Assembly (NCBI GenBank): GCA_951406725.2
Contig: OX597819.1
Location: 45,074,001-45,138,000 of the forward strand
From: Octopus vulgaris
Lineage: Eukaryota
Direction of reading: 5' to 3'
Length of the DNA: 64,000 nucleotides
Shown here: one piece after another, positions 10,297 to 62,967 of the stretch
How the letters are laid out: every line of letters begins with the position of its first letter
Position numbering within the stretch: position 1 is the first letter of the stretch
The notes under the pieces: generated by a model
The model's database searches: none
What the model saw: only the letters and a program-made list of their open reading frames with translations
What the model was told of the DNA's origin: nothing
Translations under genes and position numbers: made by a program

Positions 10297-10341
10297 CACA
10301 CGCTGACGAGAGGTCAATACCTCGAAACTCGAGTCCGTGTG
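10297..10341 (+). ncRNA. Minimal type I hammerhead ribozyme, copy 1 (predicted cleavage after C10335)
   Basis: cacacg-CTGACGA-gagg-tcaata-cctc-GAAAC-tcga-GTC-cgtgtg: perfect stems I and II, full core, palindromic loop III. Confidence 0.92.
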
Positions 10342-10648
10342 TATCATAAGTTGAAGACGGGAAGGATGACTTCCCTTTGCAAATACTGACAGGACACAGA
10401 AAGTGTGTCTATGGCCAGCTGGAGGAGTGTGTCCTCCTGGGGCTAAAAACTACAGTAGCATCCACCCTTAGGGGTAGCCATATTGAGATGGCAAATATAC
10501 GTCACGATGTGTTACCGCTACTGTATATAACTCACTTTGATATTTATCATTGTTTGATTTCACTTTTTCAATATCAGCGACAGTGGACGCTGGAAAAAGT
10601 ATAATTATTTGTGAAGGAAATCTAATTCTCGCCGACAACTATGATTGT

Positions 10649-10693
10649 CACACGCTGACGAGAGGTCAATACCTCGAAACTCGAGTCCGTGTG
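10649..10693 (+). ncRNA. Minimal type I hammerhead ribozyme, copy 2 (predicted cleavage after C10687)
   Basis: Identical to 10297-10341. Confidence 0.92.
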
Positions 10694-10879
10694 TATCATA
10701 AGTTGAAGACGGGAAGGATGACTTCCCTTTGCAAATACTGACAGGACACAGAAAGTGTGTCTATGGCCAGCTGGAGGAGTGTGTCCTCCTGGGGCTAAAA
10801 ACTACAGTAGCATCCACCCTTAGGGGTAGCCATATTGAGATGGCAAATATACGTCACTATATATATATATATATACCGA

Positions 10880-11180
10880 AATTGTGAAGTATATTTGCCA
10901 CCTAAATGTGGTTGGCCCATATGGGACGATGCTACTGTAATTTATAGCTCTAGGAAGACGTCTCCTCCGGCTGGCTAACAACACACTGTCCGATTAGTAT
11001 TTGCGATAGGAATTCATCATACCCACCTCTAGACTGACGTGATACACAGGGATCCGGGTTTCTGCGTAGTAACCCGTCATCAGCATGTGATAATCACCAG
11101 CTAGTGATGAGAAGTGATTTCGAACGCAAAGTACTATATGCTTTTTTCCAGTGAAAAAAGTCACTGATCTCGAAAAAGGA
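10880..11180 (-). mobile_element. Diverged inverted copy of the ~350-bp HHR unit; degenerate HHR at 11045-11089
   Basis: Minus strand reads cacatg-CTGATGA-cgggttactacgca-GAAAC-ccgg-ATC-cctgtg and shares TACAGTAGCATC and GGCAAATATACTTCAC with the 10.3-kb unit. Confidence 0.8.
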
Positions 11181-12439
11181 GAAACAAGCAATAATAAATC
11201 TCTGAGCCAGATGTAAAGAGTAGCTATAAACTACAATAGCATATATAACAGAAATATACAGTAGTATATATAACGGAAAATATACATCTAAAACGCAGCT
11301 GTTTTCCGACTTGTGGTACGCGTCTCTAAAGAATAATATGACAAGACAATAATATTATCAGTTCCAAGATTTAACGGCATCGGATTGCCTCCAACAGAGT
11401 GAAATAACCGTAATAAATGTGTATATGTTGGGTTGGCTACACACACACACACACAGAAACAAGCATATACATACATACCCCCCACACACACACACATATG
11501 TACGTATGCTGCTCCAGATTATTCTTGATCGAGACATCCTATAACAGAAAAGCATTTTGATCGTGGCCATCGCGTCTTTTTATTAGCATTAAGGAACGCT
11601 GAACAGATGTCATGTCCCTTCAAGACAATTGGTCATGACATTAGTAAATTTTACTATTATTTATTGGCAAGCAAAGATCTACGTTAGTGGCACTGCCTCG
11701 TCGATTCTATGTCTATGTTTGTATGTTCCGACGTCGTTAAACAAATATTAAATCATTAAGTCCGCATTACTCACTATTACCATTTGACTACTAACCTCGA
11801 TAAAATATTCAAATTGCTGCACTAAAACATTCTTTTGTAATTTTTCATAGGACGGCAGAAAAAAAAAATTATGAAATGCCATGACATTGTAACTGCATTT
11901 CACAGAAGCCTTGATTTCCTAAGCTTATATATACTATTGGCTTCGGTTCAGTCCCACTGCAATGCGCCTTGACAAGTGTTTTGTTCCATGGTCCCGAGTG
12001 AATTTGTTAAAGAAAGTCTCTCGTTCTTCTTCTTTCTCGAACTTACTCTCTCTGTATATCTATATATGCAAAAGTGAGAATGTGTGCCTCTCTTTCTGTC
12101 TGTATGTGTGCATCATAGGTTTTACTCATGCCTTACTTAGGGTCCATGCAGTGTTATGGACAATGCAAGTAATCTCTTATCTCTTCCCCTATTGCAGTAT
12201 TACGTGTAGAAAATGAAAGAATAACATATCTATTGTAACGTGAGACAATAATTTCAGTTTTAATACTTTCAGAATGTTTGTAATATATACATACTGAAAC
12301 TATTATCTCACTTACATATATATATTTGCACGTGTATATATGTGTATATAGATCTGAACACACACACACACACACACACATATATATATATATATATATA
12401 TACATATATATATTTATATATATAATATATATATATATA

Positions 12440-12645
12440 TTTCTTTTTTATTGACCACATGGGGCCAAACATAGAGGGGACAAACAAGGAATAAGTCGAT
12501 TACATCGACCCCTGTGTGTAAATGGTATTATTTATTCGACCTCGAAAGGATGAAAAGCAAAGTCGACCACGGGCACTCACTACGTAACGGCAGACAAAAT
12601 ACTGCTAAGCATTTAGCCTGGCGTGTCATCGATTCTGCCAGCTCA
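12440..12645 (-). mobile_element. SINE family B variant
   Basis: Reverse complement reads GAGCTGGCAGAATCGATGACACGCCAGGCTAAATGCTTAGCAGTATTTTGTCTGCCGTTACG...GGTCGACTTTGCTTTTCATCC. Confidence 0.75.
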
Positions 12646-13792
12646 TATAGACATGTATATATATGTAAATATATATATATGTAAATATACATACATGCAT
12701 TTACATGTATATATATATCTATACTTGTATATATATGTGCATGTGTATATATATATATATATATATATACATATCTATATATATACATGTGTATATGTAC
12801 ATGAATATATATATCTATACTTGTATATATATGTGCATGCGTATATATATATATATATATACATACATATCTATATATATATACATGTGTATATGTACAT
12901 GAATATATATATAGGTATATATATACGTACATGTATGTATACATATATGTTTGTATATATATATGTGTATGTGTGTTTGTATTGGCGTATGTGTGCTTGT
13001 CCTCAAATCCTCACAGTTCCGCTGACAAGCGACATGGATACGTTTATATCTCTGTAACATAGTGGTTGGTTAAAATACCCCGAGGTAATAAATACCACAC
13101 TGATAATGCAAGCACCACCGGAGTCGATTTGTTCGACTAAAGCACTTCGGAGTGCTGCCCCCGCATGGGCATATTCCAGTGACTAAAATATTTTTAAAAG
13201 ATATGATTCATGTCATTTTGTGACTCACTGTCTCCTATAATTCAATGTTTTATTGTTGTTGTGCATAGTAAAAGGATTCCCGTTCAGGTGTCTTATTATA
13301 CACCATACTTGAAAGCGGGCATTTATACACCATATCTTGAAGAATGGTGGTCACGCGTATACTTGTGTGCCCGAATGTTAATGTTGACATCTGAATGGAG
13401 TAAACAATTAGATTCCCCGCAATTGTGTGTCGTTAGAGCAGGTCAATAAGTCAGCACAACGATTTTTCCGGCTTAAACTTTACATATATTTGAGTGTTAC
13501 ACTGAATAGGATAAAGTAAATATGTTTTCTAATGTGTAGTTTGTTTCTGTTACTTTGATGACTTTGTCATTAATTCGATTTTCGATTTTAATTAATTATT
13601 TCCATGTTAGTAACAATTTTTACATATCGTTTTATTTTAAAACATTCAAAACACTTTATGCCTGGGAAAACAACAAATATAAATCGATTATGTATTCTGA
13701 CGAGTAAAAAAAAATTATCCATATGATATATAATGTAATATGTAATATTGGTTAGTTGTGTTTTATATGTATGTATATATATATATATACTT

Positions 13793-61162: not shown

Positions 61163-61248
61163 TATATTGGCTTTTGGGTCAAAATGCACTTTTGTTGATA
61201 TTGCATGCGATATAAATAAGAGTGCATTTTACACCAAAAGCCAATATA
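61163..61248. other. 86-nt near-perfect hairpin
   Basis: TATATTGGCTTTTGGGTCAAAATGCACT pairs with AGTGCATTTTACACCAAAAGCCAATATA, with a paired inner segment. Confidence 0.8.
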
Positions 61249-61685
61249 AGTGTTTCTCTCATGATATAATGTAATATGTATATATGTTGTAATACTCTGT
61301 AGGGCCATATTGATTTTAATTAGTGTCTGCTCTTTGGAGTTACGAATTGTACTGGTGACACTTTGTTACAGTACTGATTACGTTGTTGGCTATATATCTA
61401 TTACAAATCAATTTAGTTAGCCTACTATATCTCTTACAAATCAATATCTGTTACAAATGAATTTATAAGCTCTCTACAGAGAGCTTATAAAACATTCGCC
61501 TGTATCTTTAATCCCTTATAGTCATATATATATATATATATATATATATATATATATATATATATATATATACTGATATTTCGCTTCGGCTTATATATAT
61601 ATATATTAATTTAGAGATAGTAGGCCCTTTCATCTCACCATATAAAAAATAATTTTTATTTTAAATACCTACTGTTTTTTAACTT

Positions 61686-61782
61686 GGCTACACGTGTTTC
61701 ATGAGGTGTGCATTCCTCGGTTCCTAAACCACTCCGTGTTTTGCTGGAACCGTTCTTAAAATGTAACCCCAGTCATCAGGCC
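61686..61782 (-). ncRNA. Type I hammerhead ribozyme with extended stem II, intact core
   Basis: ggc-CTGATGA-ctgggg..cggttcc...ggaaccg..cctcat-GAAAC-acgt-GTA-gcc. Confidence 0.8.
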
Positions 61783-61799
61783 CTTATATCCAATAGTTA

Positions 61800-62070
61800 G
61801 AATTTGATCCGGACCTGTTTTCGGAGGTCATCTCTCGTGACGAAAACTGGTGCGACGGAATTTGCAGATGTGGTAGAGGGGAAGAAAAAACGAGTGAGGC
61901 GTTAAAATGGCATCACTTCGCAAGAGTTCCAGCACTGCTTTTTACAGTGACAAACGCATCTGGACCGATGCATTGCTTCAACTGGAGAATACTTTGAAGG
62001 CGATAAAAGTGTAACAATGTAGACCAATTGAATAAAATAATATTGCAAAATCCTGGTTTCTTTGGTGTAT
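61800..62070 (+). mobile_element. Internally deleted mariner remnant
   Basis: EFDPDLFSEVISRDENW joined to ITSQEFQHCFLQ*QTHLDRCIASTGEYFEGD (mariner C-terminus). Confidence 0.7.
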
Positions 62071-62271
62071 ATATTGCAACAGGGATAAATATACGGGGTA
62101 GGTGTAATACTTATATCACTATATGTATATGTATGTGAGATTGAGAAAGACATATAGATAAACTGAACCTCGGGCCAACCAAAGCCTTGTGAGTGAACTT
62201 GGTAGACGGAAACTGAAAGAAGCCCGTCGCATATATATATATATATATATATATATATATATATATATATA

Positions 62272-62967
62272 TAAGTAATACTAAGCAATTAAGGGTTTAG
62301 CAACGAATTGCCTTACCGCACACCGAATTTAGAAATAGCAGTCAAAGAGATTATAGCTATTTCTTCTACTAAAAGGGAGATCTCAGTAAAAACACAGCAT
62401 TTGAAAGGCAAACACAAACAGGTAAGAGAGAATGAATTGACGGCAATCTATCATACAGTTTTAAGTCACCTACGGACGTACGTTTCGAAATCAAGTCTTA
62501 GGAAAGCATAAGAATTAGATAATTCTACCTTACCCAAACTTCTTCTCTCATCAGCGCAGGATACAAACAATCATGAATGATTGTATATTGAATTTTGAGA
62601 TACTAGAAGGCACCAACTCAACTCAGTATCAGTGCGAGCTAGAAGCCACAACTAGTATCACCAAATTCAAAGTGTGAATGAAAGTTTGTGTCACCAGTCC
62701 CTTCCCACCCGCGTGTAGCCAAGACAAAGTGCTGTGGTCATTTACTGGGATGAATATGGTTATCAGTAACAATGAAGGGTGAAATTAATTAATTTGGAAT
62801 AATTATCAATTACACCAAGTAGTCTTCGGCATGTAAAAGCCTCATTCGAGGAAAATTTAAGTAATACTAAGCAATTAAGGGTTTAGCAACGAATTGCCTT
62901 ACCGCACACCGAATTTAGAAATAGCAGTCATTCCTCGAATGAGGCTTTTACATGCCGAAGACTACTT
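62272..62967 (-). mobile_element. 586-bp HHR-bearing unit plus 73-bp terminal direct repeat and 37-bp inverted tail, nested in the (TA)n of a SINE A
   Basis: 62272-62344 equals 62858-62930; 62931-62967 is the reverse complement of 62817-62853; SINE halves lie at 62167-62230 and 63041-63150. Confidence 0.85.
62469..62560 (-). ncRNA. Type I hammerhead ribozyme with extended stem II, intact core
   Basis: cctgcg-CTGATGA-gaga..aagtt..agaatt/aattct..gactt..tttc-GAAAC-gtac-GTC-cgtagg. Confidence 0.88.

Follow-up and report, generated by a model that had tools for sequence, protein, structure and literature searches.

Palindromes of type I hammerhead motifs in non-coding octopus repeats are best explained by pairing of two copies

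The window, a 64-kb stretch of the Octopus vulgaris genome, holds several repeats with hammerhead motifs (Table 1). The young insertion at 10.3 kb sits between (TA)n tracts, and all of its genome matches that were scored (40/40, out of 886 candidates) are 100% identical. Its family has a period of 352-353 nt, and no ORF of at least 120 aa is present in 10258-10860; a tandem unit within 150-450 bp, one type I hammerhead per unit and no ORF make up the layout of non-LTR retrozymes. The older superfamily member and the young copy lie tail to tail. The 44.9 kb repeat has 1,663 genome candidates, of which 40 were scored, and its word (the N4 of the AC-NNNN-GT segment) is kept in 21 of 24 aligned copies. 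The repeat at 33901..34272 is unrelated to that at 33437..33843 and differs from it in stem I, with an identical palindrome, ACATATGT. A short fold-back is found at the 5′ end of the 62274..62967 tandem. The palindrome ACAGCTGT (+ strand, 50906-50913) and the non-palindromic ACCGTCGT (− strand, 27442-27449) were absent from the earlier note on this DNA; the former is taken as a decayed copy or chance, since neither a core nor a relative was found for it.

Table 1. Repeats, hammerhead motifs and 8-nt segments of the window.
Position	Strand	Feature	8-nt segment	Remark
10258..10860	+	Young retrozyme-type insertion, one 352-nt unit and 251 nt of a second		Two same-strand hammerheads
10297..10341	+	Type I hammerhead, stem I CACACG/CGTGTG, stem II 5 bp	ACTCGAGT, 10327-10334	Rfam Hammerhead_1; 8-mer confirmed
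10649..10693	+	Second hammerhead, identical to the first	ACTCGAGT, 10679-10686	Rfam Hammerhead_1; 8-mer confirmed
10858..11229	-	Older superfamily member, 72% identical to young copy, decayed hammerhead 11045-11089	ACCCGGAT, 11052-11059	One change away from palindrome
27331..27498	-	Decayed relative of 44.9 kb element	ACCGTCGT, 27442-27449	Non-palindromic; 80% over 115 nt
31147..31517	+	Solitary superfamily member, CCGG clade, hammerhead 31309-31353	ACCCGGGT, 31339-31346	8-mer confirmed
33437..33843	-	Repeat with long-stem-II hammerhead, core from 33768	ACATATGT, 33697-33704	8-mer confirmed
33901..34272	-	Older repeat with hammerhead, core TTGATGA 34207-34201	ACATATGT, 34104-34111	8-mer confirmed
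44515..44981	+	High-copy repeat with hammerhead, core from 44868	ACGATCGT, 44936-44943	8-mer confirmed
50903..50914	+	GAAACAGCTGTC	ACAGCTGT, 50906-50913	Without core or relative
61524..61782	-	Repeat with long-stem-II hammerhead, core from 61779	ACACGTGT, 61690-61697	8-mer confirmed
62274..62967	-	586-nt-period partial tandem, hammerhead core from 62554	ACGTACGT, 62476-62483	8-mer confirmed

By their sequence, the window sites with palindromes are type I hammerhead motifs and are predicted to be self-cutting: they have the core CUGANGA...GAAA...UH together with stems I and II, and the predicted cut in the 10297..10341 hammerhead falls after C10335. Their stem III of 1-2 bp with a palindromic loop is the trait of the dimer-type hammerheads of Penelope-like elements. 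Rfam gave no match within the window at the gathering threshold, with Hammerhead_1 scoring just below it (32.2 bits at both 10297-10341, E = 7.2e-6, and 10649-10693; gathering score 34). C3 is changed in the 31.3 kb copy, where the core starts TTGACGA, and in the 34.1 kb copy, and G16.2 is changed in the 11.06 kb copy.

The earlier note had described the AC-NNNN-GT segment as variable between elements and palindromic, and this holds, with every 8-mer it listed lying at its given place. The six words it counted are also present, but they do not stand for six families, since a single superfamily has both TCGA and CCGG, and the two elements with ATAT are not related to each other. Of the 14 GAAAC-N4-GTH sites in the window, 9 form 8-nt palindromes (binomial p = 2e-8, or 2e-7 for 8/13 once the 10.3/10.7 kb duplicate is merged) against a background rate of 0.063; six control contexts total 22/334 (0.066), which leaves the order of magnitude unchanged. 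The genome-wide enrichment of palindromes on which the earlier note had made its proposal depend is likewise present, with 18/68 GAAAC-N4-GT sites palindromic as opposed to those 22/334 control sites in 400 kb taken at even steps from two contigs. Genome matches to the core pattern numbered 8,533 for gaps of 8-38 nt (CTGATGA only), 19,468 for gaps of 39-69 nt and 5,887 for gaps of 70-100 nt, compared with 310, 955 and 644, respectively, for the reversed pattern. A hand count found exact palindromes in 67 of the first 100 matches listed for the 8-38 nt CTGATGA pattern. Two clusters were considered as exceptions: the TGAC cluster was rejected as it really has a longer 12-nt palindrome, ACTGACGTCAGT (3 copies), and the ATGG cluster, which did not pass the stem filter, is probably not a hammerhead.

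Clades of the 352-nt superfamily bear TCGA, TCGG, CCGG or TGCA, and the commonest word is self-complementary in every expanded clade (TCGA 20/23, TCGG 12/12, TGCA 19/22 and CCGG 5/12). On a superfamily tree computed with N4 masked, the words that do not self-pair are scattered tips. The central pair, which is impossible inside one hairpin, remains complementary across clades, and the proposed covariation for a stem III formed between copies was borne out: the pair is CG in 18 and GC in 6 of 24 chosen copies, and 22 of the 28 families keep it complementary, against a shuffle mean of 7.1. In an alignment whose rows were hand-picked and related, 92.8% of cells in stems I, II and the palindrome are paired, compared with 14-55% in slid controls. 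The TCGA, TCGG, CCGG, TGCA series covaries between lineages at a pair whose formation requires two copies, and this supports the dimer model from sequence alone.

We consider these repeats, at a probability of about 0.8, to be non-coding elements with type I hammerheads in which an 8-nt palindrome would let two copies, most likely neighbours on the same tandem transcript, pair into a double hammerhead and cut. In a lone copy stem III would be unstable, having 2 bp and a 4-nt loop, and the monomer hairpin is predicted to be unfavourable by 2.4-2.9 kcal/mol. In a dimer the two palindromes would form one 8-bp helix and, judging from hammerhead topology, the strands of stem I would be swapped, so that each core would combine the 5′ half of one copy with the 3′ half of its partner. 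This exchange of stem I was absent from the earlier note's account, and it means that stem I would add to specificity since it too swaps between partners. A folding model that lacks Mg2+ and tertiary contacts puts the active fold above the ensemble by 2.0 kcal/mol for the cis dimer, 7.0 for one monomer and 13.7 for two. The predicted cost of the trans dimer is about +3.1 kcal/mol at 1 M and rises to +11.6 at 1 micromolar, whereas the monomer route comes to +7.0; the trans figure derives from a single structure and is thus somewhat too high. The tandem cis dimer is thus predicted to rank above the monomer and the monomer above the trans dimer, which makes trans-cleavage of solitary copies the least favoured route in the model, and 10649..10693 is the likely cis partner of 10297..10341. 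A same-strand neighbour core was seen in 12/23, 4/12 and 2/11 copies of three young groups, in 1/19 TGCA copies and in 0/8 CCGG copies; as most sampled copies have no tandem partner, which counts against this reading, cis pairing would fall to source loci or rolling transcripts. The likely role would be that multimeric RNA is cut and a single unit or circle is spared, an idea already published (PMC4209133). Selection would act in source copies and on self-complementarity only, with the word drifting by way of G-U steps or a rare double change, to be inherited by the lineage.

The hammerheads could instead be mainly monomeric, held by an extended stem I and tertiary contacts, with the palindrome kept as an accessory that speeds tandem cutting. 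Stem I is conserved in its distal helix (96.9% paired), many copies are solitary, and most invertebrate retrozymes with a 2-bp stem III and a tetraloop are described as cleaving efficiently (PMC7229834). We nevertheless find this quite unlikely, since a monomer sets no constraint on the central pair, whose complementarity across families and CG to GC flip in one clade are described above; the fold may still also act alone, as efficient monomeric cleavage of a coral retrozyme is reported in the same source (PMC7229834). It is highly improbable that a dimeric protein uses the palindrome as its site in DNA, or that the palindrome stems from a mutation bias, for instance CpG decay or palindrome correction. 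Two steps of CpG decay could lead from GATC to AATT, and one cluster has both words, but the word varies freely between families and lies where a hammerhead has its stem III, and the TCGG of an expanded clade self-pairs only as RNA, via G-U.

The earlier note went further and proposed an orthogonal pairing code, in which each family completes its active site only with a partner of the same palindrome, so that solitary copies could be cleaved in trans. A selected code, with co-resident families driven to distinct palindromes so as to cut their own kind only, in trans included, is very unlikely. For all 120 pairs of differing perfect palindromes the predicted loss is 5.5 kcal/mol or more, but orthogonality needs no selection, because any palindromes mismatch each other by construction, and for wobble neighbours the predicted loss is 0.0. 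One word per family did not hold: 18 of the 19 sampled palindromic families share their word with another, one superfamily has four words, and the two unrelated ATAT elements of the window lie 400 bp apart. Only 7 of the 16 possible words are used, where 10.6-11.3 distinct words would be expected for 19 families (p 0.001-0.009), so words are clumped and the palindrome is not private to a family. Nor was a difference in words between co-active relatives borne out in the model, where the youngest sister subfamilies, TCGA and TCGG, are predicted to be cross-compatible with no penalty (0.0), and a trans dimer is dear at the micromolar cost given above. Stem I was cross-compatible in 10/42 ordered same-word family pairs and 7/300 others; same-word families having more, not less, stem I compatibility fits inheritance. 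Insulation between families would then be a by-product of palindrome and stem I. In favour of selection, the TGCA and CCGG sister clades have stem I in common (CGUGCG/CGUGCG) and differ at all four word positions, with a predicted penalty of 13.3 kcal/mol that comes entirely from the palindrome. Intermediates are scarce, with 1 TCCA and 0 TGGA counted by hand among the first 100 of 435 matches listed, next to 241 pattern matches for the TGCA word. It is unlikely that palindrome switches are self-recognition barriers within this superfamily, the double transversion that flipped the central pair of TGCA having insulated it from CCGG. If such switches were favoured by stopping cross-cutting from a co-expressed relative, they would amount to character displacement between selfish ribozyme RNAs. 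Mobile elements would then compete in a new way if cross-cutting were both real and selected, and present evidence leans against it.

Pairing of two hammerhead copies is supported here as the best explanation of the palindrome, and its role in dimers has been published before (PMC4209133, PMC6765202). Cervera and de la Pena 2014 (PMC4209133) describe metazoan Penelope-like elements with a helix III of 1-2 bp, a small palindromic loop and proposed dimer action, as for the octopus motifs. Their families, like ours, are many and divergent within a genome, mostly single copies with a long helix II, and an extra nucleotide ahead of helix II and a palindromic 15.2-16.2 plus loop 3 recur in both; here the 8-nt form of the helix prevails, and one family has 12 nt. 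The results and discussion of that paper contain neither a per-family word table nor cross-talk between families. A palindromic, very short stem III with dimer cleavage, and a tandem layout as the likely source of partners, are also attributed to Lunse, Weinberg and Breaker 2016/2017 (cited in PMC6765202, PMC6466107). Similarly, in newt satellite 2 and avocado sunblotch viroid (Forster et al. 1988, cited in PMC4209133, PMC6765202, PMC6466107) the short stems III of two hammerheads merge in multimeric RNA, although each case involves one RNA species whereas the octopus genome has dozens of co-resident families. The 352-nt family fits the metazoan non-LTR retrozymes, which are non-coding, have a type I hammerhead in a tandem unit of 150-450 bp and have been proposed as non-autonomous Penelope-like derivatives (PMC7229834; Li, Clavereau and Pollet 2026, bioRxiv 10.64898/2026.07.22.740005). 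For those, circular RNA and cleavage were demonstrated, while the octopus family is known from sequence; the string 'palindrom' occurs nowhere in the available text of the preprint. A literature search covering few subscription papers and no supplements found no published family code or cross-cleavage between families. As the design is already known, our finding chiefly adds support and a test set, with natural pairs differing in the palindrome only (TGCA/CCGG), in stem I only (TCGG/CCGG) or in neither (TCGA/TCGG).

Dimer-type hammerheads of Penelope-like elements are expected in the pseudo-LTR of a coding element with RT and GIY-YIG. Three coding families with hammerhead motifs beside an ORF were examined in the genome (the L310 family, L311/L319 and L320), and their Penelope identity is presumed from motifs. 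None is a window family, as they have other hammerheads, and no window family could be tied by sequence to a coding Penelope element. Among 30 endonuclease loci a motif was found in 4, none at a common position, and Pfam gave no fitting match for the endonuclease or RT frames. No RNA record of the 352-nt family was found among the holders listed, and no joints were seen in the contigs of 4 of the 24 listed runs, contigs being silent on ends, which speaks neither for nor against expression. The insertions of the 352-nt family themselves point to Penelope-like retrotransposons as the likely copying machinery, with 5′ truncation, partial tandems, an inverted 5′ arm, an optional 3′ tail and (TA)n targets. 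Their 5′ ends are variable, with no pile-up at the predicted cut site by eye, and 3′ ends fall at unit position ~251 or 293-299. These features match those described in PMC8557442, although the tail is ~43-47 nt compared with the 30-40 bp given there. One arm, L163, begins at unit position 80, where 79 was expected.

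All of the 8-mers named in the earlier note were located at their positions in the window, and 9 of the 14 GAAAC-N4-GTH sites there are palindromic at N4, the four variable nucleotides (the word) at the stem III position; the ninth, without a recognisable core, was absent from that list. Enrichment beyond the window proved real and genome-wide in this 2.8 Gb, AT-rich genome. GAAAC-N4-GT was palindromic at 18/68 sites against 22/334 in six control contexts (400 kb at even steps from two contigs), and core-plus-GAAAC patterns with gaps of 8–38 (CTGATGA only), 39–69 and 70–100 nt matched 8,533, 19,468 and 5,887 times across the genome, against 310, 955 and 644 for reversed controls. 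The sections of PMC4209133 drawn on here describe metazoan type I hammerheads with a helix III of 1–2 bp and a palindromic loop, folding as dimers in tandems and varying widely within one genome, an account repeated with citation of Lunse et al. in excerpts of PMC6765202 and PMC6466107. The dimer reading is supported and already known, and the window elements are further examples of this published design. No published family code was found in the literature searched, which does not by itself show its absence from print.

Across families, 257 motif matches formed 63 clusters, of which 35 were removed for having no member that combined a stem I of at least 3 bp with a closing stem II. The commonest word is an exact palindrome in 19 of the 28 families kept (25 if wobble is allowed). 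Complementarity of the central pair holds in 22 families, where shuffling gives 7.1 on average; the sample is biased to loci from our own searches, and clusters may be distantly related. Since the central pair is unable to close within one hairpin, pairing of two hammerhead copies is the simplest reading of the palindrome, and the suggestion in the earlier note that stem III forms between copies is supported.

Within the 352-nt superfamily of retrozyme-type units, a tree of 107 copies with N4 masked (bootstrap not fully settled) gave clades with the words TCGA (20/23), TCGG (12/12), TGCA (19/22) and CCGG (5/12; otherwise CTGG 3, TCGG 2, CCAG 1 and TCAG 1), with non-self-pairing words as scattered tips. 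Among 24 copies picked by hand, the outer variable pair reads UA in 10, CG in 7 and UG in 7, and the central pair CG in 18 and GC in 6, counts that describe few events because the rows are related. These subfamilies together offer a natural set of sequences ready for testing. The TGCA and CCGG clades carry CGUGCG on both stem I strands, with two G-U pairs, and a tandem partner is rare in them (1/19 and 0/8).

The proposal had gone further, giving each family its own palindrome as an orthogonal pairing code. A private word per family did not hold up: the 19 families with a palindrome have 7 distinct words among them (ACGT 5, GATC 3, ATAT 3, AGCT 3, GTAC 2, AATT 2, CTAG 1), where chance would give 10.6–11.3 (p 0.001–0.009, independence assumed), and ACATATGT occurs in both the 33.7 and the 34.1 kb element, which show no homology. 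The 34.1 kb family keeps its word in 17/22 aligned copies, chosen by a query containing the word. Different perfect palindromes are predicted to lose at least 5.5 kcal/mol in 120/120 pairs, and TGCA with CCGG 13.3 kcal/mol from the palindrome alone, both in favour of the proposal. The folding model predicts no heterodimer penalty between TCGA and TCGG, the two youngest subfamilies. From the topology, a double hammerhead would swap its stem I strands between copies as well; only 2/21 same-word family pairs could form a 3 bp stem I both ways, so much of the identity lies in stem I. Stem I compatibility is commoner among same-word families (10/42 ordered pairs) than among others (7/300), the opposite of what displacement predicts. 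An orthogonal family code is not supported, and selected insulation of sister lineages seems quite improbable.

Relative to the free ensemble, the folding model puts the 10.3/10.7 kb tandem 2.0 kcal/mol higher as a double hammerhead, 7.0 higher with one active monomer and 13.7 higher with two. A trans homodimer would cost +3.1 kcal/mol at 1 M, rising to about +11.6 at 1 micromolar and to +15.9 at 1 nM, figures for a single structure with terms summed by hand, in a model without Mg2+ or tertiary contacts. These energies predict that the cis tandem is favoured over the monomer, and the monomer over trans, the route that the earlier note proposed for solitary copies. A tandem partner is missing from most of the copies sampled, and the core is altered in several of the window copies, so such copies are likely fossils.

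Rfam at its gathering threshold gave zero matches in the window; Hammerhead_1 scored 32.2 bits at the 10.3 and 10.7 kb sites, just below the gathering score. The 40 scored relatives of this tandem are identical across the 91-nt query. The unit conforms to the non-LTR retrozymes described in PMC7229834 and bioRxiv 10.64898/2026.07.22.740005. Copies of the family stop at about position 251 or 293–299 of the unit, start variably, frequently have an inverted 5′ arm and mostly lie within (TA)n, matching Penelope-like insertion features given in PMC8557442. Read-through RNA across the tail-to-tail copies would form a long fold-back hairpin.

Hammerhead motifs adjoin the frames of coding Penelope-like elements in the genome; no sequence link to any window family was found among the coding elements examined. 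Pfam gave no hit for the endonuclease-like fragment, which has 150 scored matches among 8,067 candidates in the genome, and no fitting hit for the 192-aa frame. The duplication around the gap is likely an assembly overlap.

Features in the window and at loci (L-numbers) sampled elsewhere in the genome
Position	Strand	Feature
8630-8791	+	GIY-YIG-like endonuclease fragment, presumably of Penelope type
10.3, 10.7 kb		Sites 352 nt apart in non-coding tandem
10792-10950		Young + and older - copies tail to tail across (TA)n tract
11.06, 31.3 kb		Older 352-nt superfamily members (72-76% identity)
21641-24159, 24389-26900		Duplicated at 99.9%
24232-24331		100-N gap
33.7, 34.1, 44.9, 61.7, 62.5 kb		Long stems II; repeats other than 352-nt superfamily
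50.9 kb		Ninth palindrome
59592-60170	-	192-aa frame, presumably resembling decayed Tc1/mariner transposase
L310 2745-4910 (relatives: L312-L317, L325-L329)	+	Young coding Penelope-like family, 722-aa open frame; hammerhead 150 nt before frame, stem II minimal, stem III region longer (16-nt, near-palindromic)
L012, L027, L038 (at 1501)		Hammerhead family, 12-nt palindrome; 4-bp monomer hairpin also possible
L224, L229, L319, L320		Other stem III forms: 6-nt palindrome in relative of 352-nt family; 12-nt palindrome starting AT; 8-nt palindrome, A-U replacing C-G; odd-length, 9-nt
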